Of a DNA stretch of 64,000 nucleotides, positions 39,592 through 53,469 are shown piece by piece; position 1 is the first letter of the stretch, and every line of letters starts with the position of its first letter. This stretch comes from Patescibacteria group bacterium UBA6017 (GTDB lineage: Bacteria; Patescibacteriota; Saccharimonadia; UBA4664). The notes beneath the pieces are model-generated. The model saw only the letters and a program-made list of their open reading frames with translations, ran no database searches and had not been told where the DNA came from. The stretch is from assembly GCA_002429485.1 (NCBI GenBank), contig DIZX01000015.1, forward strand, positions 187,073-251,072. The letters are read 5' to 3'. The position numbers and the translations under genes are program-made.

Positions 39592-39676
39592 GCGTTATCT
39601 GTTGAGCCGTACGGCCGCCGTACCTCAAAAATGAAAATAAGCGTTTTGAAGCAAGTTTTCATAATCGATTTAATGC

Positions 39677-39692
39677 GCTGGCGGAGAGGGAG
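39677..39692 (-). repeat. 15 to 16-nt direct repeat of the 3' end of tRNA-Ser(CGA) (TGGCGGAGAGGGAGAT on the plus strand)
   Basis: Matches 39806-39821 (the tRNA 3' end including CCA) over 15 consecutive nt, about 115 nt beyond the tRNA 3' end. Confidence 0.5.
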
Positions 39693-39771
39693 ATATCGTC
39701 GCTGCGCGACCTCCGCTCACTGCGTTCTCTACGCCGAACTAGCCTGAGTCCGAATCAACCTAGCGCCAAAG

Positions 39772-39803
39772 AAAAACCCCCAGCGCGAGGTTGGGGGTTT
39801 TTC
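39772..39803 (-). terminator. intrinsic terminator AAAAACCCCC-agcgcgaggtt-GGGGGTTTTT immediately 3' of tRNA-Ser(CGA)
   Basis: Perfect GC stem with flanking A and T runs; bidirectional geometry. Confidence 0.6.
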
Positions 39804-39805
39804 TT

Positions 39806-39895
39806 TGGCGGAGAGGGAGAGATTCGAACTCTCGGAAGCCTTGCGGCCTCACCGCATTTCGAGTGCGGCGCACTAGTCCACTATGCGACCTCTCC
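39806..39895 (-). tRNA. tRNA-Ser (anticodon CGA)
   Basis: Manual fold: acceptor GGAGAGG, anticodon loop CTCGAAA, long variable arm, T-arm GAGAG-TTCGAAT-CTCTC, CCA encoded. Confidence 0.9.
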
Positions 39896-40129
39896 AAATC
39901 CATTCCGCTTATGTTTTGGAATGAAAATAAATATAACCAACTTAAGGTAGCATATTTCACCTGATTTGTTGAGGCTAAGAAATTTGCAACAGCTCAAGCG
40001 CCGGGGTCGAATTATACTCACAACAAATTCGGTTTAGCTCAAGCGCCGGTCACACTGCCCAACCGAAATCAATTAAGACAGCCTATAAGGGGAAAATAAA
40101 AACCCCACTTTCACGTGAGGTGTTTATTT

Positions 40130-40205
40130 TGGTGCGCCCGGGAGGACTTGAACCTCCGACCCCCGCCACCGCAAGGCGATGCTCTATCCACTGAGCTACG
40201 AGCGC
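40130..40205 (-). tRNA. tRNA-Arg (anticodon read as GCG)
   Basis: 76 nt; acceptor GCGCTCG/CGGGCGC, D-arm GCTC-AGTGGATA-GAGC, anticodon arm TCGCC-TTGCGGT-GGCGG, T-arm GGAGG-TTCAAGT-CCTCC, CCA encoded. Confidence 0.8.
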
Positions 40206-40257
40206 ATGATCTGTTAGTACCGTCAGACTTTAGCACAGCTCACGGTCAAAATAAAGG

Positions 40258-40896
40258 CTAAAAGCGCACGTACCGCGTAATCCGCTCGATAACGTCGAGC
40301 GGGCGGTCTTCCCGGGGCAGGTGCAATTCGAGGTGCCCCACAATTTCATCAAAATCTACTGTGTCGAATAAAATCACCCTGCGCGGGCTCAATCGCTTTG
40401 TCGGCTCCAGGTCAATCGAATGCCATTCCTCGTCCGGGATCACGCCAAATGACCGAAACTCAGCAAACGGATACAGACTGCCGTCAATATGCACCCCCTG
40501 GTCGCTGAGTTCATACTGCATTACTCGCGGAGGCTTGTGTGCATACACCGCCAAAGCACCCCCCATGGCAATGAAAACGACTACCTCAAGCCATAAATGC
40601 AGCCAAGCGGCCAATCCGGCCAATACCGCCACGATAAGCCCGAGAGCACCATACCAGGCTTTCGATTTATGATTATGAACGTACTCGGAAGCTTGCCAGC
40701 TAAACGCCACTTCAGGCTCGGATTCAGCCGAGCTATCATCATCGGCTTCAACCGAGCCTTCATCACCCGCATCTAAGTCCGGGGCTTGTTCGTCCAGCTC
40801 AGTTACCTGAGCTGCTTCTACTTCGCTGTCATCGACGGCTTCGACCGGTTGCTGACTGAGCTCATCGCCCATAATGCTTATCCTCTTGCCAAACAT
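40258..40896 (-). CDS. hypothetical membrane protein with acidic N-terminal region
   Basis: An Asp/Glu-rich N-terminus, two TM helices, and a C-terminal domain of about 90 aa that may be a bacterial PH-like domain. An alternative start at 40872 has AAGAGGA upstream. Confidence 0.55.
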   Translation of the reverse strand: MFGKRISIMGDELSQQPVEAVDDSEVEAAQVTELDEQAPDLDAGDEGSVEADDDSSAESEPEVAFSWQASEYVHNHKSKAWYGALGLIVAVLAGLAAWLHLWLEVVVFIAMGGALAVYAHKPPRVMQYELSDQGVHIDGSLYPFAEFRSFGVIPDEEWHSIDLEPTKRLSPRRVILFDTVDFDEIVGHLELHLPREDRPLDVIERITRYVRF

Positions 40897-40943
40897 TATG
40901 GCGCAAGCAGCGCCCAGTGTACAATATGCGTGTCAGCCTACCT

Positions 40944-41031
40944 GGAGGGGTCGCATAGCGGCCGAGTGCACCGGTCTTGAAAACCGGAGACCTTCACGGG
41001 TCCGTGGGTTCGAATCCCACCCCCTCCGCCA
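40944..41031 (+). tRNA. tRNA-Ser (anticodon TGA)
   Basis: GGAGGGG-TC-GCA-TAGCGGCCGAG-TGC-A-CCGGT-CTTGAAA-ACCGG, long variable arm, TGGGTTCGAATCCCA, CCA encoded. Confidence 0.9.
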
Positions 41032-41102
41032 AGTAGCTCGACCGCGGATTCGAACGTCGCCGGTTCGGTCGACGCCCGAAAGGGCAAGAGTGGCACAGCC
41101 AC

Positions 41103-41122
41103 AATCCCACCCCCTCCGCCAA
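41103..41122 (+). repeat. 20-nt direct repeat of the 3' end of tRNA-Ser(TGA) (AATCCCACCCCCTCCGCCAA), a candidate att-site scar
   Basis: Identical to 41013-41032. The 70-nt spacer contains a T-arm-like fragment GCGGATTCGAAC. Confidence 0.6.
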
Positions 41123-41151
41123 TTTATGCACTAAACATCGAGATCACCAGT

Positions 41152-41805
41152 ATGAGCCCAGAAAATCTATCAGAAGATCAGCAACCTGATTCAGAGGAAA
41201 TACAGCGGCACGCCGACCTCACGAATGATCTGCTCAACATTCGAGCCGAGGCCGCCCAAGAAGCCGACTATGACCCCCAGCCTATGCCGGAAGCTGGCCC
41301 CGAAGCAGGGCCGGAGAGAGATCAAATCTTCGAACAGGCCAGCGCCGAACGCGGCGGCTTTCTCCGAGACACCCTCACCTCCTCGCTAGTCAGCAACGGC
41401 CTCGACCTCGTTCCGTTCGTGGGCGGCGGCAAAATGCTCGTCGAATCAATCGCCGGCCAAACACTCAACGGAGAAGAGATGACCGGCAAAAACCGGATTA
41501 TTCACGCCGCCATGGGCGCCGGCAGCCTCGGGCTGGACCTCACTGGTATCGGCGAGGCCAGGGAGAGCGCGATGCTCGCGGGTAAAAGCGTAGGCCTAGT
41601 CGGTAAACTCGCAGCCAAACTAACCGAACGCGGAGCCGTCAAATCTGGCCGAATTTTCGAGATATCGGCCGCCTTTATGGCCGCTCACCCGGATCTGACC
41701 GCAGAAGCCGAACGTGCGGCGGAATCTCAGATCAAACATCAAATTAGCAACATCAAATCCTACCGCCTGCGTAACCAGCCGCTAGACAATGCCGAGGCAG
41801 CCTAG
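41152..41805 (+). CDS. hypothetical protein (217 aa), acidic N-terminus with a Gly/Ala-rich core
   Basis: Clean ORF with no recognisable domain. Confidence 0.5.
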   Translation: MSPENLSEDQQPDSEEIQRHADLTNDLLNIRAEAAQEADYDPQPMPEAGPEAGPERDQIFEQASAERGGFLRDTLTSSLVSNGLDLVPFVGGGKMLVESIAGQTLNGEEMTGKNRIIHAAMGAGSLGLDLTGIGEARESAMLAGKSVGLVGKLAAKLTERGAVKSGRIFEISAAFMAAHPDLTAEAERAAESQIKHQISNIKSYRLRNQPLDNAEAA

Positions 41806-41985
41806 ATGACTAAACCCGAACTCGCCCAAATCATCAACCAGCTAGTCTCGCTCGGCGAAGACCAGGCTGAGCTCAATATTTGGCTGGAAATATTCGACTA
41901 CTTAGAGCCAGCGCAACAAACCGAGCTCGAATTAAACCTATCCCAAGAACTCGAGGCCCTCAAATCATCACCGCCAACCGCCTAA
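41806..41985 (+). CDS. small hypothetical protein (59 aa, MTKPELAQIINQLVSLGEDQAELNIWLEIFDYLEP...)
   Basis: Not in the ORF track (59 aa). The ATG abuts the stop of the upstream gene (TAG-ATG), and the frame is protein-like. It overlaps the 5' half of tracked ORF 41880..42236. Confidence 0.3.
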   Translation: MTKPELAQIINQLVSLGEDQAELNIWLEIFDYLEPAQQTELELNLSQELEALKSSPPTA

Positions 41986-42236
41986 AACTACCTCCGTTTA
42001 CCCTCCGCCTCAAGCTTGGCCTCGGCCTAATCTACCTTGCCGGCCTGGGCTGGGGCGCCGAATTCATCATCCCCTTCACGCACATCAGCCATAAATTCGT
42101 AATCTGGATAATCGTCCTCGTTGCGGCCGAGATCTGTTTTGTCGCCGGAGTCGCCATCCTCGGCAAGGCTCTCTACCGAGAACTCAAAACTCGCCTCAGC
42201 GCCATACTGATCTCTCGCCAACCCCCTCAAAACTAA
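41880..42236 (+). CDS. small membrane protein (2 TM in the C-terminal 80 aa); the 5' limit is unclear
   Basis: The C-terminal part is LGLGLIYLAGLGWGAEFIIPF...IWIIVLVAAEICFVAGVAILG. The N-terminal 35 codons look like off-frame translation of the 59-aa ORF, so a frameshift is possible. Confidence 0.3.
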   Translation: MAGNIRLLRASATNRARIKPIPRTRGPQIITANRLKLPPFTLRLKLGLGLIYLAGLGWGAEFIIPFTHISHKFVIWIIVLVAAEICFVAGVAILGKALYRELKTRLSAILISRQPPQN

Positions 42237-42285
42237 CCGCCTCATAGAAAAACCCCGCGGCAATCATGCCTACGGGGCTTTTCTA

Positions 42286-42378
42286 TGGCGGAGAGGGAGA
42301 GATTCGAACTCTCGCGGGGGATTACTCCCCCCTACAGGTTTAGCAAACCCGCCCCTTCAGCCACTTGGGTACCTCTCC
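42286..42378 (-). tRNA. tRNA-Ser (anticodon GCT)
   Basis: Acceptor GGAGAGG, anticodon arm CGGGT-TTGCTAA-ACCTG, long variable arm, T-arm GAGAG-TTCGAAT-CTCTC, CCA encoded. A terminator-like hairpin lies at 42250-42282. Confidence 0.9.
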
Positions 42379-42488
42379 GTGCTAGCTGAACCTGGATACT
42401 ATACCGCGCAGAAAGCTTTCACTCAAGACCCGTACGACTTTTATGTATACTAAAATCTAAGCGCGAAAAGTTAAGCCGGAGAAAGAAA

Positions 42489-43115
42489 ATGGGCGAATAC
42501 GGACCATCCAATCAAGATCCAAACCCAAATCAAGCCATAAAGTTTATTGAGTCACTCGATGACACAGAAGATGGCAACGAAATGTCCCTGAAGCGTTGGC
42601 CGAGCATCGATACATTGCATGAAGCCGAAACCTTAGCCGATAGAATCAGCCGACAATTCTTCAGAATGGATTCCGTAATGGGAATCGCCCTCAATAAATT
42701 AAGGCAGTCGGGTAAAGTTAATTTCAAGCTCGTACAAGACTCCCTTAGCGGCCAAGATGACCCCAATGGCCTCGTCCATCCGCTAATCGAAGGCACCGAA
42801 ACCGAGCGTGAAGCGGCAGCCAAGAGTATTGAAGCATTCCTTGAGCAAAATGATGAAATAATTGAAGGCTTGACCCTTCAAGACGATGGCTTCGCCAAAG
42901 CCGAAGAGCTCGAATCCGACGAAAAACTACCCTATGGCTACTCTCAACGGCTACGCGCCAGCTCCATCAAGGCTGATATAAAGTATTTCGAGGACAGCAA
43001 TCAAGGCGACAAAGCCGCGGCGGCCAAAGCTCAAATTGACCAGCTTATCGCCGAAGGATTTAGTCCATTAACCAACGAAGAAATTGCCGAATTAATCGAC
43101 GTCACAGCGATTTAG
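42489..43115 (+). CDS. hypothetical acidic protein (208 aa)
   Basis: Clean ORF in a lower-GC stretch; no recognisable domain. Confidence 0.55.
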   Translation: MGEYGPSNQDPNPNQAIKFIESLDDTEDGNEMSLKRWPSIDTLHEAETLADRISRQFFRMDSVMGIALNKLRQSGKVNFKLVQDSLSGQDDPNGLVHPLIEGTETEREAAAKSIEAFLEQNDEIIEGLTLQDDGFAKAEELESDEKLPYGYSQRLRASSIKADIKYFEDSNQGDKAAAAKAQIDQLIAEGFSPLTNEEIAELIDVTAI

Positions 43116-43176
43116 GCCTCCAACTGACCCCCCCAAAAAAATACCTACCTCCCCGTATTCTCGGTATACTAACCTT

Positions 43177-44601
43177 ATGGATTCTGAACGATCAACACCT
43201 GGCTCAAGCCCAGACTCAACCTTCAACACCGAACTATCGGACAAACTACTGAGCGCGTCCCAGCTCGATGATGCCCTGGAGCTCGCGCAGCCCCTTGTTG
43301 GCACCGACTCGCGGGAGTCACCGGAAGTAATAGACCTGGTGACCCAGACCATTACCACTGCCTCAAACCCTCTCGAACTCTCCAGACTCTTCGTCCAGAC
43401 AGCAGGCAGTCTATCCGAGCACGACATCGAGCCGGGCTCCATGGACATGCCATCGTTTGCACGCCTAACTCGCCTCATCAAAGACACGGCAGGGGACGAG
43501 CACCAAACCGCGGAAATTGAACGCTTCTGCGCCAACTGGAAAATCAATCACGAGTACGCACAGGCCTACGAACGCTACGTTGCCCCCGTCGCCGAATCCG
43601 GACCAATAAGCTCAATAAAACCCCAGCTCGAGCCCCGTCTAGAGGATGTACCCTCACTGCAGGAGGCCCTATCCAGAGCCGGCTTGTCGCCCGATGTGGC
43701 CAAGGATATTTTCGCTACCTGGAACAGCTATCCAGCGCTGTCGGCCGACCCTAGCCGACTAGGTGATCCATCGAATTCAAGCGTAAGCCCGCAGGATGTC
43801 GAAGAGGCCACCCTCAAACAACGCGCCATGATCTCAAGCCAAGTCGAGGCCTTAATCGGGTACGCTGATGAATATGGCAAAGACGAACTCGCGAGCATTA
43901 TCACCACCTTCGGCATCCATAACTTCAGCCGCTACCGACCCGGGCAGCTCCATCAACAGCTCATGGACTGGAACGATCCATCTAAGTCATTCGAAAACGT
44001 AATCGTCTCCGCGGTCGCAGACTGGAATGGCACGCTCAGCCGAGCTGGTTCTCAACTCATGAGCCAAAAGAGCGACTCGTCGATCTACTTCGAAGCCGGA
44101 GGTCCCACATCGCTCGCCAAAGACCTTGTAGCCATCGGTGACCGAGATAGAGCCTATGGCCGCGATCCGCTCAAGGACAGCTCCGTGAAAAACGTTATTA
44201 TTTACGGTCACTCAAATAGCGACATCATCCAGCTCGGCGTGAACGGCGAAGGCATTACTGTTTCTGATTATGTTGAAGTTCCCGGCAACAAGACCGGCAT
44301 CAAGACCGGCATCAAAAGTCGTCTGAATGACTACCGACGCCATCTAGGCAACGATTTCCGCCTCATCCTCAAGTCATGCTCTACTACCGGCTCGCCATCC
44401 GGCGTACGCAACATCGCTGAGACCCTTAGCGATGAACACGGGGTCAAAGTCGCCGGCTCACCCCTGCCCACTACCGGCGAAATTATCATAAATCCAGACG
44501 GCGAAGTATTTTTTCAGGTCAATAAGCAGCCCGAAAACAGCAAATCAGAAGCTGAAATTATCCCTGCCGTAGTCTACGACGGTCGAAAATTAGCAGCCTA
44601 A
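43177..44601 (+). CDS. hypothetical protein (474 aa) with a possible Cys/His-containing hydrolase-like C-terminal domain
   Basis: Clean ORF. The C-terminal 150 aa contain VIIYGHSNSD and LILKSCSTTGSPSG. No confident family assignment. Confidence 0.6.
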   Translation: MDSERSTPGSSPDSTFNTELSDKLLSASQLDDALELAQPLVGTDSRESPEVIDLVTQTITTASNPLELSRLFVQTAGSLSEHDIEPGSMDMPSFARLTRLIKDTAGDEHQTAEIERFCANWKINHEYAQAYERYVAPVAESGPISSIKPQLEPRLEDVPSLQEALSRAGLSPDVAKDIFATWNSYPALSADPSRLGDPSNSSVSPQDVEEATLKQRAMISSQVEALIGYADEYGKDELASIITTFGIHNFSRYRPGQLHQQLMDWNDPSKSFENVIVSAVADWNGTLSRAGSQLMSQKSDSSIYFEAGGPTSLAKDLVAIGDRDRAYGRDPLKDSSVKNVIIYGHSNSDIIQLGVNGEGITVSDYVEVPGNKTGIKTGIKSRLNDYRRHLGNDFRLILKSCSTTGSPSGVRNIAETLSDEHGVKVAGSPLPTTGEIIINPDGEVFFQVNKQPENSKSEAEIIPAVVYDGRKLAA

Positions 44602-45938: not shown

Positions 45939-46388
45939 TTAGTTGGCTTTGGATAAAGCATTAATCACGAACTGGACGAGGGCGAAGGATATCACCGCCA
46001 CCACTATACCGACAATGGCATAAAGGATTGTGTCTTTGGCGGCCGTAACGTTCTTGGAGTCACCGTTCGAGACCACGTAGCGCAAGCCGCCGATGATCAA
46101 GTAGATCACCGAGATAGCACCGACGAGGAAGATCAAGGTGTTGGCAATCACGGTGAAAATACCGCCCTGTCCGAACAAGTTATCCTTCTGGCTGCCACCC
46201 TGAGAGCATGAAGCGCCAGCGGTCAGCGGATCAGTAGCGTTGCCACTCGCGTCACAGTTTGATGCAGCTCCGAAGGCCGGGGAGGCCGAAATCATCACAC
46301 CCGCAACGGATGCGGATCCTACTCCCAGCACCAGGACGAGCGCCTGGAGCGAGAGCGCAACTTTCTTTAATAATCTCTCTATACCCAT
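45939..46388 (-). CDS. T4SS pilin-like protein, paralog 1 (VirB2/TrbC-like: signal peptide plus two C-terminal hydrophobic helices)
   Basis: N-terminal signal peptide, a Cys pair (NCDAS...ASCSQ), then IFLVGAISVIYLIIGGLRYVVSNGDSKNVTAAKDTILYAIVGIVVAVISFAL. It has its own promoter (TTGCTA-17-TAATGT at 46427-46455) and an AAGGAG RBS. Confidence 0.6.
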   Translation of the reverse strand: MGIERLLKKVALSLQALVLVLGVGSASVAGVMISASPAFGAASNCDASGNATDPLTAGASCSQGGSQKDNLFGQGGIFTVIANTLIFLVGAISVIYLIIGGLRYVVSNGDSKNVTAAKDTILYAIVGIVVAVISFALVQFVINALSKAN

Positions 46389-46456
46389 TAGAATCTAATC
46401 TCCTTAATAAAATTCAATTTGATGTGACATTAGCATAAGCGTTAACGACTAGCAAT

Positions 46457-46780
46457 CTACTTTCCTATAGTAGTCGTCACGAACTGCACTATCGCATACG
46501 CTACGATTGCTACGATTACACCTATGATAGCGTACATGATGGTGTCCTTGGCGGCCGTCACGTTCTTCGAATCACCGTTGGAGGTCACGTAACGCAACCC
46601 GCCGAGAATAATCATAATGACAGATAGGGCACCGATAAGTATCGTCAAAAAGTTGGCGACATTTGCAAAGATATGAGCCAAGCTCACATTGTTGCAATTA
46701 GCCCCACTCGCACAAGCCTGATTTGCTCCGGCCGTAATATTACTCGCTGCTGTTCCCAGTAAAACAACCAAACTACTCAT
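46457..46780 (-). CDS. T4SS pilin-like protein, paralog 2
   Basis: Signal peptide, Cys pair (CASGANC), and the shared core LGGLRYVTSNGDSKNVTAAKDTIMYAIIGVIVAIVAYAI. AGGAGA lies 6 nt before the ATG. Confidence 0.6.
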   Translation of the reverse strand: MSSLVVLLGTAASNITAGANQACASGANCNNVSLAHIFANVANFLTILIGALSVIMIILGGLRYVTSNGDSKNVTAAKDTIMYAIIGVIVAIVAYAIVQFVTTTIGK

Positions 46781-46800
46781 TTACATTCTCCTAAATTATG

Positions 46801-47106
46801 CTATTTCCCGAGCGCCGCAGCGATTCCGTCCACGATCGCGTAAGCCATGATCGCCAGTATCACCCCAGCAATTGCATATTGGAGCGAATCCCGCCCCTGC
46901 TGATACCGCTTGGCATCACCAGCCGATAAAGTGATTTGCAGCCCTCCTACAATCACGAATATTACCGCCAGCATGCCAATTATTATTATAAGCGTATGCG
47001 CAATACTTGCGAACCCCGTACTCAAATTTGTAGCGGAACTCGGGCAATTGTTGATCGTTTTGCACGAAATACCGTATAGCACCGCGACCAACCAACCGCC
47101 CATCAT
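46801..47106 (-). CDS. T4SS pilin-like protein, paralog 3
   Basis: Cys pair CKTINNC; core VGGLQITLSAGDAKRYQQGRDSLQYAIAGVILAIMAYAI. Its start abuts the stop of paralog 4. Confidence 0.55.
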   Translation of the reverse strand: MMGGWLVAVLYGISCKTINNCPSSATNLSTGFASIAHTLIIIIGMLAVIFVIVGGLQITLSAGDAKRYQQGRDSLQYAIAGVILAIMAYAIVDGIAAALGK

Positions 47107-47451
47107 CTAAAAGTTCCCCGAAATAAACGTAACTGCGGCATACGACATAATAATTAATATTAGGCCCGTTACCGTATTGATGAGGATTTCTTTCGCCCGT
47201 TTCACCCTGGACGGATCTCCTGTCGAGGTAATGTAGTAAATTGCCGCCACTAATATTGCAATGATCGCCAGCGAACCGGATATCGCAATCAAAATTCGCA
47301 TTATGTTCCCGATAATCTTTGCAACCTCTGTCAGTGAGGAAATCTGAATTTCATTCTTCGAATTACACAGGCCGTCGTAAAGACTCGGAAGCACCCCGTG
47401 CGTGGTACCGCAGTCCGCGGCGGCCATATGAAATAGCTGCAAAAAGATCAT
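47107..47451 (-). CDS. T4SS pilin-like protein, paralog 4
   Basis: Cys pair (ADCG...GLCNS); core IYYITSTGDPSRVKRAKEILINTVTGLILIIMSYAAV. Its start abuts the stop of paralog 5. Confidence 0.55.
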   Translation of the reverse strand: MIFLQLFHMAAADCGTTHGVLPSLYDGLCNSKNEIQISSLTEVAKIIGNIMRILIAISGSLAIIAILVAAIYYITSTGDPSRVKRAKEILINTVTGLILIIMSYAAVTFISGNF

Positions 47452-47928
47452 CTACAGCAACCCTCCGGGTACCAGGAAGTTCAAGATCGCCACCATCATC
47501 AAGTAGAGTACCAGCGCGGTAACGGCGTTCATTATTCGTCCCTTAGCGTTCTTCACGTTCGACGGATCGCCGCCCGAAACAATGTACTGAACACCCGCGA
47601 TCACCAGGACCAATATAATTATCCCGCCAATCAGGCTGTTTACCAGAAAAAGTATCTGCTTAAGGTAAAAAATGATTGCTCCGCCGGTCTTGGGATCGTT
47701 CGGAACCTCCACCTGACCCGACTTGCATGATCCCTGAGATCCACCGGCTGCGATCGGCAGCGCTAAACAGACCGGACCGCCGCCCCCGGTAATATCGGCC
47801 GGCGCCTTTGCTGCGGCGCCCACTTCAGCTGGCACCACATACGCTTGGCTACCCAAAACAACAACGTCCAGTGGCGCCGATACAACAGCCGCAAACGCAA
47901 CAAACAGGAATAAACTTAAGCGCTTCAT
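47452..47928 (-). CDS. T4SS pilin-like protein, paralog 5 (first gene of the pilin operon)
   Basis: Signal peptide, Cys pair (PVCLAL...GSCKSG); core VQYIVSGGDPSNVKNAKGRIMNAVTALVLYLMMVAIL. Confidence 0.55.
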   Translation of the reverse strand: MKRLSLFLFVAFAAVVSAPLDVVVLGSQAYVVPAEVGAAAKAPADITGGGGPVCLALPIAAGGSQGSCKSGQVEVPNDPKTGGAIIFYLKQILFLVNSLIGGIIILVLVIAGVQYIVSGGDPSNVKNAKGRIMNAVTALVLYLMMVAILNFLVPGGLL

Positions 47929-47935
47929 TAGGTGT

Positions 47936-47965
47936 ATTGTACCGACCCGCCCACCTAAAAGTCAA
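47936..47965 (-). promoter_or_regulatory. promoter for the pilin operon: TTGACT-18 nt-TACAAT with the -10 ending 7 nt before the ATG (probably leaderless)
   Basis: On the minus strand: TTGACT tttaggtgggcgggtcgg TACAAT acaccta ATG. Confidence 0.5.
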
Positions 47966-48002
47966 AAACTCTAATGCTTTGAACGCGGAGGTTATTTAAG
48001 AT

Positions 48003-48037
48003 TTGACTTCATTTATATAGCATAAGCGTTGTACAAT
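48003..48037 (+). promoter_or_regulatory. promoter for the T4SS structural operon: extended -10 TGTACAAT ending 7 nt before ATG 48045 (probably leaderless); weak -35
   Basis: TTGACT at 48003-48008 (23-nt spacer, so a weak -35) and TGTACAAT at 48030-48037. The 13-nt motif TAGCATAAGCGTT at 48018-48030 is also present at 46431-46443. Confidence 0.45.
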
Positions 48038-48044
48038 ATGACAC

Positions 48045-51000
48045 ATGAGACGTAGGTGGTTCGGAATATTCCTCATGGCGTGGGCGTTTATGTCCCCACT
48101 GTTTGCGTTCGCCCCGGCGGCAGAAGCCGCCCCGCCCTCCGAGTGCCACTGGACTGACCCAAACCACATCGTTTGTGATGGCACCAGCACCTACACCAAG
48201 ACTGCATTCCAAAATACAACCATCTACCGATCGGATATAAGCCACTTTATTGCAAATATCAACGCCGCCCATACGGCTGGAACATTCACCGAAATCACCC
48301 AATCGCCCCAGACGGCCAATACATACCCGATGGCGCTTGGCAGCCCGGCTAATGCCACAACTACACCCAAAAATCCGCCGTCTACCTCCCTTGCCTGCTC
48401 CTGGACAGACAAAACACTCATTCAGTGCGGCACCGAACAATTTAAATTTATTCATATAGCAGCGCAAAACCAAGATCGCTGGGTCAATAGTGCCACCAGC
48501 TTCATTGCCAACGTATCGGCCAACAAGACCGCCGCCACCCATTACACCATGCTTCAATCGGGATTGCCCGGACCTACCAATCCGGTCACCCTTAGCAATC
48601 CGGCCAACGCCACCAAAAACCCAGCTGCTCCTGGCGGAGGTCCAACCGCCGATAAACCCGTCAACTGTGAAGCAGGCGCCTTCACTTGGCTCGTCTGCGG
48701 CAGCATCAAAATCCTCGTCGGTGTCGTCGACACCATTACTAACGATGTTATCGTTCCGTTCCTCAAAGAACCCCCGCTCGACAAAAACCAAAAAGAATTT
48801 GCCCCAGTCTATGCCATCTGGTCAGCATTTCGAAACGTTGCCAGCGTCTTCTTCATCCTCGTCTTCTTCCTGGTGATTATCGGCACCGCCCTCGGCTTCG
48901 ACAACTACACCATTAAGAAGGTTCTCCCGCACCTGGTAGCAGGCGCCATTTTGATGCCGTTCTCGTGGTATCTATGTGCCTTTTTGGTCGATATCGGCAA
49001 TGTGCTTGGCCAAGGCATCGTCGTACTCATGACTAATATTATTATTATCGGCACGCCCAAAGTAGATCTCACCTCGAATTTCACCACCTTATTCCTCGGT
49101 GTCGGCGGGGGAGTAGGCACTTTCGCATTAATCGGTGCCGCAACCATCCTGGGGTTCTGCGCCATAATCTCGCTGCTAATTGCCTTCGCCGGCGTATTTC
49201 TGACCCTGGTATTCCGCAAAATATTAATTCTGTTTCTGATCATCATCAGCCCGTTTGCCCTCCTGGCCTGGGTCCTGCCCAACACCGAGAAGTGGTTCAA
49301 AGAATGGTGGCAAAACTTCCTCAAGCTCGTTATGCTCTATCCCATCATCATGATGCTGATCGAGGTTGGCCGTCTGTTCTCCGCCACTGCCACCGCCGCC
49401 TCCCCCGGCGCCATCTGTGCCGCCGGCGATACGGCCTGTCAGGCGACAGCCTGGGTAGCACCATTCTTCGCCATCGCCGGACTCACCGTCCCGCTCTTTA
49501 TCATCCCGTTTGCCTTCAAGTTTGCCGGCAAGGGTCTCGCGGCGGGCAGCGGCGCCATCAACAAGCTTGGCGGCGGCATCGACAAGAAATACGGAAAGGA
49601 CAGCGCCCTCGCCAAGGACCTCGCCGAAGGGCGCCAGCGCAAGAATGTGGCAGCTGCCAAGATTGCCGAAAGCAACGCCAAGAGCGCTCATGGCCTTCAC
49701 AAGACCGCCCTGAACCGCAAAGCCGCCATGAACTGGCGCCGAGCCGGGTTGGCGGGCAGTACCGGCAGCGCCAAGCTGAGGCGCGGTGAGGCCGTCGGCA
49801 AAGCTGATAAAGAATTAAGTACGATTGATGCCGATAACCGTATGTCCAAAGAAGCAGATCCGGAAGACTTCCGGCAGCGCCGCCTCTCCACCACGCAGAG
49901 CATCCTCGACGAGAAGGCTGCCAACCGCGGTGCCCGCCAAGGTGTATTAGAAGGTTACAATGGCGCGGGCGCTCCAGGCGCACGAGACAAGCAGCACCAG
50001 GCTCGCATCAACTCCCGCGACAATTATCTGGCTGCAGCCGGAAAAGCCAAGGGCGAGATCGAAGACGACGCTCTCAACGAACGCGAACGAGTCAATCGCA
50101 CCGGCAATTACGTCAGCCCATCCATGAAAATGGCCGCCGCTCACGATACAGCCGCCCTTTCGGCCTCGGATGCTCGCGGAACAGCCAGAGGCATCGTTGA
50201 GGGCGGGGCTGAGGCTGAGCGTATCATTCAAAGTCAAACCGGCTTAAACGCCGCTGATGCCCGCGATCTTCGGCTCCGTAATGTAGCTAAAGCCAAAAGC
50301 AACATCCAAAGCGCTTCGGCAGTCACGACCCAACAAACTGCTAACACCAATGTAACCGCCAATGCCGAGCTCGATCGCCAGCAGATCGCAGCCGCCGGCG
50401 GCCATATGTCCCCCCAGCAAGCCCGCAGTCTACGTATGCAGAACCTATCCGCCGCCACTCACTCTCAAGAGCGTGAAAAGATTGGTGCCGCCGAAGGTCA
50501 GATCGATGCCCGAAATGCCATCACCGCCTCCGCCGGCCAGGAAAACATGGGCCGCCTGGTAACTGGTGAGCGGATGGCCGCCCGCGAGCAGCTCTCCAGC
50601 GCCCGGACCTTGCGCGAAGCCCGCGCCGACTTCCAAGCCACTCCCGAAGGCTATATGTCGACCGCTGACTCACTCAAGGCCAGCCGTTTGGAAGCCAACA
50701 AGCGTATAGGTGCCAGCATAGGCGCCCAAAAACAAGAGATCGCCCAGGAGCAGGAAGATATCGCCAAAGCCCTGCGCGACGGTAACCCTGCCCCCAGACT
50801 GGCCGACCACGTAATCGCCGGCACCGAAGCCGCCAAATCTAAGACCGCTCAAGACTCCGCCCAGCGCCTGGCCGCCGTCAACGCCGTCCGTACCGGCACC
50901 GCTGCCAGCACCAGACAGCACACCGACGCCGCCGTCTATACGGCCGAGCGCAGCACCGCCATCGCCGACGCCGCCGTCAAAGCCACCGCCAGCGCCGTTA

Positions 51001-52586
51001 ACGCCCAAATCGCCGCCGTTGCCGGGGAGAAGGGCTTATCTACAGCCGCCGCCGCCCAAGCCGTCCGCACCGATAATCTCAAAGTCGCTGCGCGCGCCAA
51101 AGAAATAACTACGAACGCAGAATTTGCTACTACTCCCGCAAAAGACAGAGGCGTCATCAAGGCGTATGAAGCCGCCATCGAACAGGCCCGAGAAGCCCCC
51201 CTCCGAAAAGCCAAGGTAGCAGCCTTTGAGCGTGCCGATGAAAATGCCCGCACCGACACCTATGAACAGTCCTATCAAATCGCAAAAGCCGCCAAAATGA
51301 CGGACAAGGCAGGCAAGATCGTGAAAGACGCCGCAGGCAACGAGGTTCTCAAGTTCACCGAAGGCGAAGCCCGAGACTATGCCGCAAAAGCCAGAGATAC
51401 GCTCGGCGCCGAAAGGGGCCAAAAAGCTGGTCGCGAGGCAGCCGACAAAATCACAGCCGTAGGCAAGTTGAATTCCGCAGATGCCGAACGAGCCGTGATC
51501 GCATCCTCCGCAACAGCCGCAGAAGAATTAGCCATGCGCACAGAAGCCTCCTCGCAAGCCCAAACTGCCGCCCTCAATCAGGCCGTTGAATCGTCTGCCA
51601 CAAAACTCGATGCTAGAGAGCGCCTAGCCGTCCAGACCGAAGGTTCCGTTGCAACACTAGCTGCCGAATCTGGAGCCGCCAGAGCCCGCTACGACCTTAC
51701 TCGTCCCGGACAATCGTTAAACCAATCCTATCAAGCTGCCGAAGACCACGTAGTAAAGTCCGAACGGCTAAAAATAATAGGTGATCGCGTCGAAAAAGCC
51801 GGCAATGAAGACTTTACCTTTATGGGCAAAGACGGAGTGCCACACTCCGACAGTGTCAAAAACGCCGACTTAGGCCCAGACGGCGTCAAAGCCCAGGACG
51901 ATGAAATCAGGAGGTTGCTCAAAGATGGTTACCAAGACCCCGAAAACGAAGATCGCGCCCTCGCGCTCGTAGGCAGACTGTCGTTAACGGGCAGCGGCAG
52001 AGAAAGAGTTCGCGCAATTCAACGTGACCTATTTGGAAGAACTGAAGACCAATTGATCGATCCCACCAGATTTAAGGGCCGGGCCAGTGAGCTCTGGGAG
52101 ATCGTGCAGTCAAAAAACAAATCTGATGTATCCAAGGACTTCTTCATGCCCGAACCTGCCGCCTATGACGGCTACAGCTCATCCGAGTTTGGTCGCTCTG
52201 GTTGGGGAGAAAAGAAAAATTACTTCGAATTCGCCAAAAGAGTAGACAAAGATAATATTTACGACGAATCTACTCGAAATATCCAACAAGCCCTAACCAA
52301 CGCTCAAGTTACAAAGGAACTGAATTCCGATGACTACGCTCAAATGTGGATCTATATGCAAGACCCCAAGGCCCTAACTGCTCTGGCCACACGAGACACA
52401 GACGCAGGGAAAGGCAAAACAGGCCTCGACATCGTAAAGAAGATATATGCGTCAGGTGGCGCGGCTGAAGCCGAAAAGAGATGGTTAGAAAAACAAGGCG
52501 GCGACCCAAGCAGGAATATTCTCAAACAATACGCAGATTCTGGCTTCACTGTTTTACCGCCAGTGCCACCCCCTCCGACCCCCTAG
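48045..52586 (+). CDS. VirB6/TrbL-like T4SS inner-membrane protein with an N-terminal Cys-pair repeat domain and an about 1000-aa Ala/Lys/Glu-rich C-terminal extension
   Basis: 1513 aa. It has a signal peptide; three C-x9-C motifs (CHWTDPNHIVCDG, CSWTDKTLIQCGT, CEAGAFTWLVCGS); a polytopic core of about 8 TM helices between residues 230 and 500; then a low-complexity Ala-rich helical tail. Confidence 0.7.
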   Translation: MRRRWFGIFLMAWAFMSPLFAFAPAAEAAPPSECHWTDPNHIVCDGTSTYTKTAFQNTTIYRSDISHFIANINAAHTAGTFTEITQSPQTANTYPMALGSPANATTTPKNPPSTSLACSWTDKTLIQCGTEQFKFIHIAAQNQDRWVNSATSFIANVSANKTAATHYTMLQSGLPGPTNPVTLSNPANATKNPAAPGGGPTADKPVNCEAGAFTWLVCGSIKILVGVVDTITNDVIVPFLKEPPLDKNQKEFAPVYAIWSAFRNVASVFFILVFFLVIIGTALGFDNYTIKKVLPHLVAGAILMPFSWYLCAFLVDIGNVLGQGIVVLMTNIIIIGTPKVDLTSNFTTLFLGVGGGVGTFALIGAATILGFCAIISLLIAFAGVFLTLVFRKILILFLIIISPFALLAWVLPNTEKWFKEWWQNFLKLVMLYPIIMMLIEVGRLFSATATAASPGAICAAGDTACQATAWVAPFFAIAGLTVPLFIIPFAFKFAGKGLAAGSGAINKLGGGIDKKYGKDSALAKDLAEGRQRKNVAAAKIAESNAKSAHGLHKTALNRKAAMNWRRAGLAGSTGSAKLRRGEAVGKADKELSTIDADNRMSKEADPEDFRQRRLSTTQSILDEKAANRGARQGVLEGYNGAGAPGARDKQHQARINSRDNYLAAAGKAKGEIEDDALNERERVNRTGNYVSPSMKMAAAHDTAALSASDARGTARGIVEGGAEAERIIQSQTGLNAADARDLRLRNVAKAKSNIQSASAVTTQQTANTNVTANAELDRQQIAAAGGHMSPQQARSLRMQNLSAATHSQEREKIGAAEGQIDARNAITASAGQENMGRLVTGERMAAREQLSSARTLREARADFQATPEGYMSTADSLKASRLEANKRIGASIGAQKQEIAQEQEDIAKALRDGNPAPRLADHVIAGTEAAKSKTAQDSAQRLAAVNAVRTGTAASTRQHTDAAVYTAERSTAIADAAVKATASAVNAQIAAVAGEKGLSTAAAAQAVRTDNLKVAARAKEITTNAEFATTPAKDRGVIKAYEAAIEQAREAPLRKAKVAAFERADENARTDTYEQSYQIAKAAKMTDKAGKIVKDAAGNEVLKFTEGEARDYAAKARDTLGAERGQKAGREAADKITAVGKLNSADAERAVIASSATAAEELAMRTEASSQAQTAALNQAVESSATKLDARERLAVQTEGSVATLAAESGAARARYDLTRPGQSLNQSYQAAEDHVVKSERLKIIGDRVEKAGNEDFTFMGKDGVPHSDSVKNADLGPDGVKAQDDEIRRLLKDGYQDPENEDRALALVGRLSLTGSGRERVRAIQRDLFGRTEDQLIDPTRFKGRASELWEIVQSKNKSDVSKDFFMPEPAAYDGYSSSEFGRSGWGEKKNYFEFAKRVDKDNIYDESTRNIQQALTNAQVTKELNSDDYAQMWIYMQDPKALTALATRDTDAGKGKTGLDIVKKIYASGGAAEAEKRWLEKQGGDPSRNILKQYADSGFTVLPPVPPPPTP

Positions 52587-52659
52587 CCCTCTAGCCCTCT
52601 AGCCCGCCGACCCATATTAGCGTAAGCTTAATGTGAGATAGAGGTGGAGTTCCCGAAAC

Positions 52660-53469
52660 ATGGGCCAGTATAAGGTGCCGCAAAACGTAGAGGCCGAGGA
52701 CAAGATTCTTGGCCCGTTAACTTTCAAGGAGTTTATCTACTTCTTGATGGGTTTTGGTTGGGCCGCGCTGAGCTTTGCCATCTTCCGTCAAATTCCCGTC
52801 CTCATGGTCGTCATCGGCTTTCCGCCCACCACGCTATTGCTGCTGCTGGCCTTCTACAACCGCGACGGCCAAAGCTTTGAGCAGCTCCTGGTAGCCATGG
52901 TGGGTTTCTTTGCCACCTCCCGCCGCCGCGCCTGGTCCAAAGATGACATCATCGAAACCTTCCACGTGGAGGCCACCGTCATCGCCGCCGAGGCCACCCA
53001 GCGCAATTCGGCCGAAGTCCGCGGTGAGCTCGAAAAACTCGCCAACCTCATCGATTCCCGCGGCTGGAACCACCCCCAGGAGCCCGAACCCTCACAGATC
53101 ATGCCATCTATCGCCCACACCGACCGCATCGTGCCCACGCCGCCGCCAACCCCCGGTGAAGTACCCACCGATATCCTCGACCTGCAGCAAAGTCCGCTGG
53201 CCCAAAACCTTGCCGAGCTACTACGCGCGGCAGCCGAAGACGTTCGCGAAGAGGCTATCCAGCAAATGGCCGGCAAGCCAGTCCGGCCCGTAAAAGGCGC
53301 TCCAGCCCCCACAAGCATAAGCGGCGTGACAGCCGCGTCGCCGAACGATATACTTCAATTAGCAACGCAGAGTGATGAGTTAAGTGTGACGCAGATTGCC
53401 GCCCAGGCCACCCGCCGGGTTGCGCTGCCAAACGGACAAACCTTGGAGATTCCCGTCAATGGCAGCTAA
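52660..53469 (+). CDS. PrgI-family (VirB3-like) T4SS membrane protein
   Basis: N-terminus KVPQNVEAEDKILGPLTFKEFIYFLMGFGWAALSFAIF matches the PrgI-family pattern (VPKDI..YEEK..GLT.RQ), followed by two TM helices. It overlaps the next gene by 11 nt. Confidence 0.65.
   Translation: MGQYKVPQNVEAEDKILGPLTFKEFIYFLMGFGWAALSFAIFRQIPVLMVVIGFPPTTLLLLLAFYNRDGQSFEQLLVAMVGFFATSRRRAWSKDDIIETFHVEATVIAAEATQRNSAEVRGELEKLANLIDSRGWNHPQEPEPSQIMPSIAHTDRIVPTPPPTPGEVPTDILDLQQSPLAQNLAELLRAAAEDVREEAIQQMAGKPVRPVKGAPAPTSISGVTAASPNDILQLATQSDELSVTQIAAQATRRVALPNGQTLEIPVNGS

Follow-up and report, generated by a model that had tools for sequence, protein, structure and literature searches.

Williams, writing in Nucleic Acids Res in 2002, is said to have distinguished sublocation classes of the att sites in tRNA genes, among them a T-loop crossover class. 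The attC sites of integrons and the attP(+) site of the CTX phage are folded single-stranded recombination sites, while IS200/IS605-type elements insert just 3' of a specific sequence without duplicating it. CIMEs are decayed ICEs or IMEs in which attL and attR persist but the genes for integration and transfer are gone (PMC5704250). Annotation of prokaryotic tRNAs also flags tRNA gene fragments (PMC9897764).

The window analysed here, the whole stretch of 64,000 nucleotides, has five tRNA genes, as originally predicted, and all were recovered by both ARAGORN and the Rfam tRNA model. The serine isoacceptors are complete, and three of the Ser genes lie with the Arg gene inside 2.6 kb. Two of the genes are followed by a copy of their own 3' end, and this copy belongs, as its 3' arm, to a short non-coding element designated X in this report.

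9670-9759, minus strand: tRNA-Ser(GGA), the fourth isoacceptor, no element downstream
39806-39895, minus strand: tRNA-Ser(CGA), target gene of X(CGA)
40130-40205, minus strand: tRNA-Arg(GCG), without an element in the window, X present behind the gene in 8 relatives
40944-41031, plus strand: tRNA-Ser(TGA), 58.4 bits with the Rfam model, target gene of X(TGA)
42286-42378, minus strand: tRNA-Ser(GCT), without an element in the window, X present behind the gene in 7 relatives
42243-42287: terminator hairpin at tRNA-Ser(GCT)

The sequence AATCCCACCCCCTCCGCCAA occurs exactly twice in the 64 kb, at 41013-41032 and, as had been predicted, at 41103-41122; the two 20 nt copies are identical and 70 nt apart, and 100 shuffles gave no match even when two mismatches were allowed. 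The 3' end of tRNA-Ser(CGA), ATCTCTCCCTCTCCGCCA (39806-39823), has a second copy on the minus strand that matches at 17 of 18 positions, 15 nt of them exact, with a spacing of 109 nt. The original prediction was right that this second repeat is real but placed it 2-4 nt off, at 39677-39692 instead of 39679-39696. Elsewhere in the window ATCTCTCCCTCTCCGCCA matches only at the 3' termini of the genes for tRNA-Ser(GCT) and tRNA-Ser(GGA), and shuffled sequences had a mean of 0.01 matches. There is virtually no likelihood that C/T-rich sequence produced the repeats as chance matches: X(CGA) has only 15 exact bases and a fold no better than shuffles, but no shuffle reached the observed number of matches and the arrangement recurs in relatives with different tRNA sequences, which refutes the idea. 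Both tRNA-Ser 3'-end repeats are thus confirmed as not due to chance, and the view of them as att-like held, in that they are direct repeats of a tRNA 3' end that begin in the T loop (position 58/59) and extend to the end of CCA.

The DNA between the repeats was resolved into the following features.

41032-41122, plus strand: X(TGA), a short form that begins immediately 3' of the tRNA CCA, without a terminator between
41044-41048, plus strand: remnant 5' arm GCGGA, predicted to pair with UCCGC of the 3' arm as helix P1
41052-41055 and 41062-41066, plus strand: helix P2, GAAC, a loop and GGTTC, then GG
41090-41102, plus strand: helix P4, hairpin GTGGC-ACA-GCCAC, 0-3 nt upstream of the tRNA-end copy
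41103-41122, plus strand: 3' arm, exact copy of tRNA-Ser(TGA) positions 58-76 and one further base
39679-39768, minus strand: X(CGA), a short form, with motifs common to the element at the related locus L102 and to the long forms
39764-39768, minus strand: start of X(CGA), TGGCG
39736-39751, minus strand: P2 of X(CGA), GGACT/AGTTC, then GGCGTAG, then GAGCGGAGG
39698-39710, minus strand: P4 of X(CGA), GTCGC-GCA-GCGAC, then GAT, then the 3' arm
39679-39696, minus strand: 3' arm of X(CGA), copy of tRNA-Ser(CGA) positions 59-76
39764-39810, no strand assigned: 19-bp perfect hairpin with A/T runs on its flanks, bidirectional terminator-like (repeat search, terminator scan and fold), overlapping the CCA end of tRNA-Ser(CGA) and the first 5 nt of X(CGA)

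X(TGA) is homologous both to the 95-nt insertion at L102, with which it shares GGATTCGAACnTCGCCGGTTCG, and to longer members of the family, and its minimum free energy had z-scores of -2.2 (RNA parameters) and -3.0 (DNA parameters). The nhmmer profile of the core recovered X(CGA) weakly (E=0.18). The predicted free energy of this copy was no better than that of shuffled sequences (z 0.0 with RNA and -1.3 with DNA parameters), so it may be decaying.

About 28 copies of X were found behind tRNA-Arg(GCG) and tRNA-Ser(GCT), (TGA) and (CGA) at about 20 of 64 related loci. The element, which recurs in many Saccharimonadia (candidate phyla radiation), is gene-less and rich in hairpins, about 90 nt long in the window and 70-190 nt in the relatives. 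In 42 genome loci, the 3' end of 14 tRNA genes is repeated downstream on the same strand as an exact copy of 18-19 nt, which ends at 166-193 nt, compared with 90 and 127 nt for the copies in the window; about 13 further copies of tRNA ends are decayed and have the identical set of internal motifs. Read along the tRNA strand, the tRNA and an optional terminator hairpin are followed by a left arm that begins with TGG, an inverted and often degenerate copy of tRNA positions ~50-76 (17-25 nt in the long forms). The core then runs in the order GAAC-loop-GTTC, GGCG.AG, variable hairpins flanked by ..GCGCAG/CGAGCA.. and a purine run, and a small hairpin. At the right end this hairpin is followed by G(A/C)T or AAT and by an 18-19-nt direct copy of positions 58/59-76 of the tRNA, with a closing CCA; the right part as a whole corresponds to positions 52-57 plus 58/59-76 of the neighbouring tRNA. 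A profile of the core, run over about 1.4 Mb of DNA, matched only X copies downstream of tRNAs, and among 63 unrelated loci with the same tRNA-Ser 3' end X was present only in a viral contig, L167. These results demonstrate that X is a family and that, within the DNA searched, it is limited to the site just downstream of tRNA-Arg and tRNA-Ser genes. The DNA between the window repeats is an intact member of this conserved, structured, non-coding family of 70-190 nt, and not, as first proposed, what is left of a phage or ICE.

Three comparisons bear on the movement of X. 1) The loci L101 and L102, both metagenome assemblies and the only filled/empty pair found at the strain level, are 99% identical over 7.6 kb; immediately after tRNA-Ser(CGA), L102 has a single 95-nt X that L101 lacks and that is homologous to both copies in the window, so the claim that the repeats flank inserted DNA was borne out. 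The repeats that flank the L102 insertion differ at 3 of 28 nt, compared with 1% divergence between the strains, and therefore the element carried its own tRNA-like end. 2) In L039, 167-nt units with a single-nucleotide difference lie behind Ser(GCT) and Ser(TGA), with limits exactly at both CCA ends, and the copy behind Ser(TGA) retains a T-stem base of Ser(GCT). 3) In L167, two tandem 188-nt units follow a prophage attR-like tRNA fragment. These comparisons show that X is an insertion/deletion polymorphism between near-identical strains, that it has been copied between two tRNAs within one genome, that it can build tandem arrays, and that the flanking repeats came with the element and not by target duplication.

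It is very unlikely that the repeats are attL/attR scars of larger, integrase-encoding prophages or islands that were later almost fully deleted. The repeat coincides exactly with the T-loop-to-CCA block that tRNA att sites typically use, strain-specific genes make the region a hot spot, and a real prophage end abuts such a site in L167. However, the same covarying core of 70-150 nt lies behind four tRNAs in about 20 genomes, which would not be expected from independent deletions, and X arrives whole, as a unit of 95 or 167 nt. The remnants of integrases that the original prediction suggested looking for were not found: integrase, phage and transposase families were absent from the called genes of the window (1-24 kb and 30-64 kb) and from 20 ORFs in the variable segments of relatives, and no integrase, phage gene or island lay between the window repeats. 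X also had no similarity to sequences in phage and plasmid collections. The recurrence of the core, the lack of integrase remnants and the arrival of X as a whole unit largely refute the scar interpretation, and X appears to be very small mobile DNA of a type not described before, and not what is left of a prophage.

Folding was compared with that of shuffled sequences. The long forms fold better (z -3.3 to -4.8 with RNA and -2.2 to -3.4 with DNA parameters). The P2 pairing GAAC/GTTC was present in 25 family members, with C-G as the fifth base pair in 12 and T-A in 8. A hairpin at the P4 position was present in 17 members with 10 different stems, and, for helices that were picked by eye, 98% of the pairs were canonical as against 60% when the partner strands were shuffled. 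The orthologous pair L033/L037 has two compensatory double changes and one A-U to G-U change that is tolerated on the tRNA strand only. The hairpins of X thus covary.

These folds could also mean that X functions as RNA. Read-through from the promoter of the tRNA would then produce either a structured non-coding RNA or a cis-acting segment of the tRNA transcript, with a left arm antisense to the tRNA 3' end and a right arm that mimics it. Such an RNA might guide processing, serve as a decoy that draws off enzymes attacking the 3' ends of tRNAs, or regulate a downstream gene, and the spread of X between tRNAs would be secondary. We consider a role of this kind rather unlikely. The covarying hairpins, the motifs kept over deep divergence and the strand-restricted G-U change in L033/L037 are in its favour, as are slightly better folding on the plus strand than on the minus (17 of 24 copies, p=0.05), a 3' arm that stays exact while the left arm decays, and the downstream terminators that several copies have of their own. 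There is no terminator between tRNA and X in L026 or at X(TGA), which fits co-transcription and a possible role as RNA, and the gene for a 217-aa protein starts 30 nt past X(TGA) on the same strand. On the other hand, X has no room for its own promoter, a strong terminator precedes most copies, and G-U pairs in the predicted helices number 76 on one strand and 79 on the other; this absence of strand bias fits hairpins at the DNA level. Moreover, many copies are clearly decayed or truncated, occupancy is patchy among close relatives and among the four tRNAs, X is missing from thirteen strains belonging to two related species, the Rfam families gave no match even at a permissive E-value, and X(CGA) is no more stable than shuffles.

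The best explanation, which we hold with modest confidence, is that X is probably a miniature, non-autonomous, non-coding insertion element that homes to tRNA 3' ends, and that the repeats are its right-hand ends. The unit, composed of leader/terminator, left arm, core and tRNA-end copy, would enter and leave through one Campbell-type crossover, in which its tRNA-like right end recombines with the identical 3' end of a tRNA gene, a step that would leave the tRNA intact. The inverted left arm would pair with the right arm, such that one strand could rebuild a double-stranded replica of the target site; for this reason a folded single-stranded DNA intermediate is favoured, worked on by a putative recombinase supplied in trans. 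The copies in the window are short forms, X(CGA) perhaps already decaying. The left arm pairs better with its own 3' arm than with those that belong to the other tRNA type (-12.8 versus -7.4 kcal/mol, p=0.005). However, of the 15 copies whose 3' arm is exact, 6 had left-arm pairing no better than that of shuffled sequence, and consequently the idea of a hairpin att site can apply at most to recent copies. The surroundings of the X copies examined yielded no recombinase, transposase or reverse transcriptase, and a search for an autonomous, ORF-bearing version found none.

X might instead arise locally, without dedicated machinery: at tRNA genes under heavy transcription, replication might switch templates or a hairpin might form, with inverted and direct duplication of the tRNA 3' end as the product. 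X would then spread from strain to strain by natural transformation and by homology-facilitated recombination with the conserved tRNA sequence as its anchor. The origin of both arms from the adjacent tRNA, the left part as reverse complement of positions ~47-76, agrees with such an event, as does the right junction at L102, which lies inside an 8-nt microhomology, TTTATTCC; competence genes are present in these bacteria and comF adjoins the tRNA cluster. The 60-90-nt core between the tRNA-derived pieces, however, is not derived from the local tRNA and is homologous between elements at Arg and Ser tRNAs, which points to one origin followed by spread and not to repeated local creation. Local origin is thus unlikely, although it overlaps with the homing-element explanation in that recombination-based transfer may be the mode of movement.

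Taken as a homing element, X resembles several described systems in part. Like tyrosine-integrase att sites in tRNAs, its repeat runs from the T loop (58/59) through CCA and leaves the tRNA intact, and it is present or absent between strains and accretes in tandem; unlike them, it is 70-190 nt long without a gene or integrase, has a conserved hairpin-rich core and repeats the att block in inverted form at the opposite end. With CIMEs it shares non-autonomy, att-type repeats at a tRNA 3' end and possible tandem placement, but CIMEs are kilobase-sized with a recognisable parent (PMC5704250), whereas X measures about 100 nt, bears no sign of a parent and, in many genomes, has a conserved structure of its own. 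The tRNA fragments flagged in annotation (PMC9897764) are similar in that X contains a partial, non-functional tRNA piece adjoining a genuine tRNA gene; in X the fragment, undetected by the tRNA covariance model on either strand, forms a single module within a larger, conserved element.

The attC and CTX attP(+) sites have the same general size (60-150 nt), imperfect inverted arms with bulges, no target duplication, a variable and sometimes branched centre and, for X by prediction, one strand able to rebuild the duplex site. The arms of X differ in that they copy the target tRNA end and have no R''/R' (RYYYAAC/GTTRRRY) or dif-like cores, and, in contrast to integrons, no integron integrase or cassette array was seen with X. 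Like MITEs and the palindrome-associated derivatives of IS200/IS605, X is small and non-coding with terminal or subterminal hairpins and a trans-supplied enzyme, putative for X; with the IS200/IS605 type it also has in common a position just 3' of a specific sequence that is not duplicated. Unlike them, it is not dispersed but lies only behind tRNAs, no parent IS was found, it carries an 18-28-nt flanking repeat, and its arms match a particular tRNA.

The genes around the cluster are of two kinds, core and accessory.

40258-40896, minus strand: 212-aa conserved membrane protein, core anchor of the tRNA cluster
41152-42236, plus strand: accessory genes between convergent tRNA 3' ends, outside the repeat pairs
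42489-44601, plus strand: accessory genes for 208-aa and 474-aa proteins between tRNA-Ser(GCT) and comF, slightly lower GC

The 212-aa protein had no match in Pfam, NCBIfam or PHROG but has 140 homologues, every named one from CPR/Saccharimonadia, and its gene has the same location in 42 genomes. The original prediction had set a history of integration against chance repeats in a core, syntenic setting; the tRNA cluster and the 212-aa gene did prove core and syntenic in 42 of 42 Saccharimonadia relatives, yet the repeats recur among relatives within the same element. The genes at 41152-42236 encode proteins of 217 aa (weak PT-TG pre-toxin match), 59 aa and 118 aa (transporter-suffix domain) according to Pfam and NCBIfam, and homologues were absent from the syntenic loci of 42 relatives, as was any homologue of the 208-aa protein. 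The 208-aa and 474-aa proteins matched no family in Pfam, NCBIfam or PHROG. Both these blocks, the second given as 42400-44600, had been proposed as leftovers of integrated elements; the genes are indeed accessory, but they lie outside the repeat pairs and no tRNA-end copy brackets any of them. The 474-aa protein has a homologue in one relative only, L035, between Ser(GCT) and Ser(TGA). The lower GC claimed for 42400-44600 was present but modest, with 0.508 for 42001-43000 in the GC profile as against about 0.55-0.57 nearby.

ARAGORN placed the five tRNA genes where the original prediction had claimed them, with the Rfam model confirming four, and the repeats of the serine tRNA 3' ends were also present; comparison with shuffled sequences placed these repeats far from chance. 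The genes and the sequences associated with them are as follows.

9670-9759, minus strand: tRNA-Ser(GGA) (ARAGORN)
39679-39768, minus strand: element X(CGA), behind tRNA-Ser(CGA)
39806-39895, minus strand: tRNA-Ser(CGA) (ARAGORN, Rfam tRNA model)
40130-40205, minus strand: tRNA-Arg(GCG) (ARAGORN, Rfam tRNA model)
40944-41031, plus strand: tRNA-Ser(TGA) (ARAGORN, Rfam tRNA model)
41032-41122, plus strand: element X(TGA), behind tRNA-Ser(TGA)
41152-42236, between convergent tRNA 3' ends: three-gene strain-specific cassette (217 aa, 59 aa and 118 aa)
42286-42378, minus strand: tRNA-Ser(GCT) (ARAGORN, Rfam tRNA model)

The 20-mer AATCCCACCCCCTCCGCCAA had two exact occurrences in the window, at 41013-41032 and 41103-41122, and shuffled sequences gave no match to it with two mismatches allowed. 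The last 18 nt of tRNA-Ser(CGA) had a 17/18 copy at 39679-39696 on the minus strand; the other matches to this end in the 64 kb were the gene ends of tRNA-Ser(GCT) and tRNA-Ser(GGA) only, and the shuffled mean was 0.01 matches. The gap between the repeat copies was 70 nt behind tRNA-Ser(TGA) and 109 nt behind tRNA-Ser(CGA), and no open reading frame was found between them.

Each tRNA in 42 related Saccharimonadia loci (L005-L046) was checked for a downstream copy of its own last 16 nt; the compared sequences were metagenome assemblies throughout. Twelve further cases were found in relatives, behind Arg(GCG), Ser(GCT), Ser(TGA) and Ser(CGA). In all twelve, the copy lay on the tRNA strand, comprised 18-19 exact bases and ended 166-193 nt past the tRNA. 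The sequences between tRNA and copy were homologous to one another and to both window segments. Scans for motifs and near-copies added about 13 members in which the 3' copy was decayed or truncated, giving about 28 copies of the element, designated X, in about 20 of 64 loci (Arg, 8; Ser(GCT), 7; Ser(TGA), at least 7; Ser(CGA), 6). When about 1.4 Mb of DNA, the window among it, was searched with a profile built from the core alone, with the arms left out, the only matches were copies downstream of tRNAs. As a control, 63 viral-contig loci with the same tRNA-Ser 3' end were inspected, and an X-like sequence followed that end in 1 of the 63 (L167).

The copies share the following order of parts.

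Part 1: an optional terminator hairpin, then the left arm, an inverted tRNA 3' end beginning TGG
Part 2: GAT(T/G)NGAAC(C/T), a loop or hairpin, (G/A)GTTC
Part 3: GG(C/T)G(G/A/T)AG
Part 4: one or two variable hairpins between ..AGCGCAG and CGAGC(A/G)
Part 5: a purine run, GGAGG, GGAAGA or AAGGAG
Part 6: a small hairpin, P4, then G(A/C)T or AAT, then the tRNA copy

The left part of X is the reverse complement of positions ~47/52-76 of the neighboring tRNA, and the right part consists of tRNA positions 52-57 (GGTTCG), a core of 60-90 nt and positions 58/59-76. The left arm was perfect over 25 nt in L027 and diverged in the other loci; when the terminator is present, the arm is not at the element boundary. 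Two helices join tRNA-derived parts: in P1, one copy of positions 59-76 is paired with the other, and in P2 (GAAC/GTTC) the 5' strand of the T-stem is paired with its second copy.

Evidence for mobility came from two metagenomes, in which loci L101 and L102 were 99% identical over 7.6 kb and differed by one 95-nt insertion, present in L102 directly behind tRNA-Ser(CGA); this strain-level comparison of an empty and a filled site is one pair and concerns a family member, not the window copies. The insertion is a short form of X. Its left half matched window positions 41047-41068 and its right half the reverse complement of 39698-39720, so X(TGA) and X(CGA) are homologous to the L102 element and to each other. 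In L039, units of 167 nt behind Ser(GCT) and Ser(TGA) differed by one base, started right after one CCA and stopped at the next, and had unrelated outer flanks. The analysis shows that X is a discrete non-coding unit with its own tRNA-like end, which lands precisely behind a tRNA and leaves the tRNA intact. Occupancy was patchy among relatives and among the four tRNAs. Both window copies were present in three contigs of the same species and are fixed there, and further homologue look-ups for strain polymorphisms, which gave contigs of two related species, showed X in 0 of 13.

Target-site duplication was considered and rejected. The L039 unit behind Ser(TGA) retains the T-stem base of its donor, Ser(GCT), and the repeats flanking the L102 insertion (tRNA 58-76 plus a 9-nt trailer) differed at 3 of 28 positions, more than a recent duplication would show at a strain divergence of 1%.

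The single viral contig with X-like sequence, L167 (IMGVR_UViG_3300009148_000537), ended, at 1957-2359, with a tail-fibre gene, a 23-nt tRNA-Ser fragment and two tandem X-like units of 188 nt each with perfect 13-nt inverted arms. The fragment begins in the T loop and is a typical attR; prophages also use this tRNA-Ser end. The match of the tail-fibre protein was limited to a cyanophage, at 40% identity. The units show that the family extends past the loci that were fetched via a Saccharimonadia protein.

No recombination enzyme was found to accompany the element. The called genes in window 1-24 kb and 30-64 kb included no integrase, transposase or reverse transcriptase family, and no recombinase family was found in 20 open reading frames from the variable segments of relatives. 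When the repeat-flanked segments were compared by BLAST with phage and plasmid collections, nothing matched beyond the tRNA part. An Rfam search over ten X-bearing loci gave gathering scores for genuine tRNAs only, and Rfam 15 at E<=5-10 returned tRNAs and terminator-like noise and nothing credible over X, which matches no Rfam family. Full-text searching of the literature found no description of X-like elements.

Several identities for X were rejected. It is not a tRNA pseudogene, as neither ARAGORN nor the covariance model matched either strand and the tRNA likeness is confined to the arms. A ribozyme-bounded, retrozyme-like repeat was discarded since there was no Rfam hammerhead, twister, HDV or similar match; a hammerhead built from GAUGAG lacks the GAAA core and has instead GGCG after GAUGAGAAC and a helix. 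Scans of viral contigs with P4 and arm patterns gave nothing, and the core-pattern matches proved to be either chance hits in coding sequence or genuine phage tRNA-Ser genes read in reverse complement; in these genes the T arm, the long variable arm and the anticodon stem together imitate GATTCGAACC..GGTTCGGCG and produce false matches. Many phage tRNA-Ser genes in viral contigs L053-L090 had an identical variable arm and anticodon stem (GGAACC-TTTC-GGTTCGGCGGA, reverse complement), which mimics the X motif GAACC..GGTTCGGCGGA. This hints that an inverted class-II tRNA may be the ancestor of the X core, although X escapes the tRNA covariance model.

Comparison with known systems showed that X works like a tRNA-targeting integrative element that has been cut down to its att region. 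As in integrase-mediated prophages, ICEs and islands, it is flanked by a direct repeat corresponding to the 3' portion of the target tRNA and, for a family member, filled and empty sites exist (L102 and L101). However, there is no integrase gene beside the att site and no kilobase-scale phage or transfer cargo, only 70 and 109 nt between the copies. The att-like reading in the original prediction was right in spirit, but what the repeats mark is two small elements, intact or in slow decay, that belong to an undescribed family; they are not the remains of prophages. A CIME is defined as an element that has kept attL and attR, lacks integration and transfer genes and has decayed from a recognizable ICE or IME (PMC5704250). 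X likewise has attL and attR without such genes, but it has no recognizable ICE or IME parent, and its approximately 28 copies share a conserved core and are not random remnants. That the copies are scars of larger elements is largely excluded by this core and by the arrival of X as a complete unit. Unlike MITEs, X makes no target-site duplication. Within the ~1.4 Mb, X was found only behind tRNAs and not dispersed. Its arms may correspond to the terminal inverted repeats of MITEs in some copies, in which they pair strongly, but in 6 of 15 copies they pair no better than shuffled sequences.

In form X resembles the folded single-stranded sites of integrons (attC) and of CTX-type phages, which also have imperfect inverted arms, a bulged hairpin fold and a variable center (z -2.2 to -3.4 for X, DNA parameters). 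The cognate integrase is IntI for attC and XerCD for a CTX-type site. The arms of X, however, are tRNA ends and not RYYYAAC/GTTRRRY (R''/R') or dif-like cores, and no IntI was found near X.

The folding of X was examined relative to dinucleotide shuffles. Long copies had z-scores of -3.3 to -4.8 with RNA parameters and -2.2 to -3.4 with DNA parameters. The corresponding values were -2.2 and -3.0 for X(TGA), and 0.0 and -1.3 for X(CGA), which suggests that the latter copy may be decaying. Alignment of whole elements by MAFFT and RNAalifold was spoiled by the variable hairpins and recovered only P4 and part of P1, so helices were counted by hand. Seventeen members had P4 in the same position; its 10 different stems were 98% canonical, compared with 60% when partner strands were shuffled (0 of 2000 shuffles reached the observed value); the helices were chosen by eye, which inflates this contrast. 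In the similarly eye-picked P2, the fifth pair was C-G in 12 members and T-A in 8. Between the orthologous copies behind Ser(GCT) in L033 and L037 there were two double changes that preserve pairing and a single change from A-U to G-U. Pairing of the left arm was more stable with its own 3' arm (-12.8 kcal/mol) than with 3' arms belonging to the other tRNA type (-7.4 kcal/mol; p=0.005), and arm pairing was strong in L167, L015, L037-Arg and L034.

G-U pairs in the predicted helices showed no strand bias (76 on one strand, 79 on the other), while the tRNA strand folded slightly better (17/24, p=0.05), so the structure may act as DNA or RNA. A less likely alternative to a mobile DNA element is that X functions as an RNA, either mimicking and masking tRNA 3' ends or acting within the read-through transcript. 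The copies that have their own terminator, or no terminator after the tRNA, favor this explanation, as does the strand-specific G-U change between L033 and L037. If X is an RNA, it would represent a new tRNA-linked RNA family.

At the DNA level, X would most likely enter by a single crossover between its right arm and an identical tRNA 3' end, which would explain the order of tRNA, leader, left arm, core and copy, as well as the tandem arrays. Through the inverted left arm, a single strand of X would be able to restore the target site in double-stranded form, as integron attC and CTX attP do. This property, together with the small size of X and the absence of strand bias, makes a folded single-stranded DNA intermediate attractive; competence genes are present in these bacteria, and DNA taken up would be single-stranded. 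Resident copies with a decayed left arm fit elements that have stopped moving, and the exactness of the right arm may reflect selection, gene conversion or recurrent recombination with the tRNA. Taken to its full extent, this scheme would make X a self-targeting cassette of about 100 nt, a tRNA-programmed "portable att site" that is rebuilt from a folded single strand, analogous to attC or CTX attP, and inserted by a housekeeping (Xer-type) or other recombinase. We consider this specific proposal unlikely. Insertion would plausibly be from the single-stranded DNA of natural transformation, with the arms re-written to follow the tRNA. A rival and less likely explanation of X is its local creation by template switching, followed by spread through transformation.

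Candidate-phyla-radiation bacteria have tiny genomes and very few recognized mobile elements. A family of about 100 nt that homes precisely to tRNA 3' ends and leaves the tRNA undamaged would add a minimal type of site-specific mobile DNA to those known and, if the portable att site is real, the first cassette-like mobile element of these bacteria. If the hairpin is the att site, recombination sites folded from single strands would extend past integrons and CTX-type phages to a target-programmed site. In annotation, the tRNA-end fragments of X should not be taken for prophage scars. X would also give a handle on the accumulation of accessory genes around the tRNA cluster.

The window is ordinary chromosome, with dnaG, groES/EL, valS, a type IV secretion cluster and recF. 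Around the tRNA cluster, 42 species-level genomes shared a backbone of Hsp20, ComF, Ser(GCT), Ser(TGA), a 212-aa gene, Arg(GCG), Ser(CGA), a TPR protein, a membrane protein and ValRS, and this recurrence indicates that the cluster is ancient and core. Among the 42 loci the orientation of tRNA-Ser(TGA), tRNA-Ser(GCT) and tRNA-Arg flips, and the tRNAs are separated by as little as 12 nt or as much as 5 kb. The cluster is a recombination hot spot without an integrase. Spacer cargo in the relatives was unrelated and included ABC and MFS transporters, a ricin-type lectin, a GH130 enzyme, a PIN/Phd toxin-antitoxin pair and spermine synthase.

The hypothetical genes near the repeats, thought in the original prediction to be possible leftovers of integrated elements, are accessory, but the repeats tie none of them to an integration event: they sit outside the repeat pairs and are not bracketed by tRNA-end copies. 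The genes at 41152-42236 and 42489-43115 had no homologue in any of the 42 syntenic loci, the 474-aa protein of the gene at 43177 had one in L035 alone, and the neighboring accessory genes had no PHROG (phage-family) match. In the cassette at 41152-42236, the 217-aa protein gave a weak PT-TG pre-toxin match (E=2.7e-4, under the Pfam cut-off) and the 118-aa membrane protein contained a "transporter suffix" domain (NF033684, E=1e-14). A polymorphic toxin-immunity pair may be encoded here. Contig L004 is nearly identical, but its version of the 217-aa gene was broken into pieces of 77 aa and 144 aa.

The 212-aa protein (40258-40896) defines a family without a match in Pfam, NCBIfam or PHROG. Its N-terminus is acidic and of low complexity, two membrane helices are predicted, and the C-terminal domain is conserved, with invariant residues that include W67, S70, E71, K77, W81, Y82, H159 and D162. 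The gene was also present on JGI metagenome contigs and in GCA_002413465.1; there were 140 homologues of the protein, and every named one was from Saccharimonadia or Patescibacteria.

A type IV secretion cluster typical of Saccharibacteria occupies 45939-59842, with five tandem T4SS-pilin paralogues followed by TrbL-like (1513 aa), PrgI, TraC-like, VirB4-like and M23 peptidase genes and no relaxase among the Pfam matches. The location of recF, dnaN, dnaA, rnpA and yidC at or just past the 3' end (window and L092), with dnaN and dnaA just outside it, indicates that the window reaches the replication origin. GC skew was negative over 1-64000.

Other structures were observed close to the tRNA genes. 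In the closest relatives of the window, L005 (880-972) and L013, a different structure lies behind tRNA-Ser(TGA) on the minus strand, with an inverted tRNA-end-like arm (GGTGGAAGGGGCGGGATTTTTGAACCC) and then a small hairpin enclosed by a perfect palindrome, AGTTCGAATC...GATTCGAACT; its junction CTGACCTAGCTAAA also occurs in L016, in the truncated X. The terminator hairpins behind tRNA-Ser(CGA) (39764-39810, a perfect 19 bp) and tRNA-Ser(GCT) (42243-42287) contain the CGCCA end of the tRNA itself in their stems and, with A and T runs on either side, look bidirectional. Between tRNA-Arg and tRNA-Ser(CGA), the motif ..AGCTCAAGCGCCGG (CCGGCGCTTGAGCT on the tRNA strand) occurs as two direct copies at 39977-40004 and 40022-40049. 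The doubled motif was found at the same position in L005/L006 and L012 and may be a promoter or operator of tRNA-Ser(CGA).
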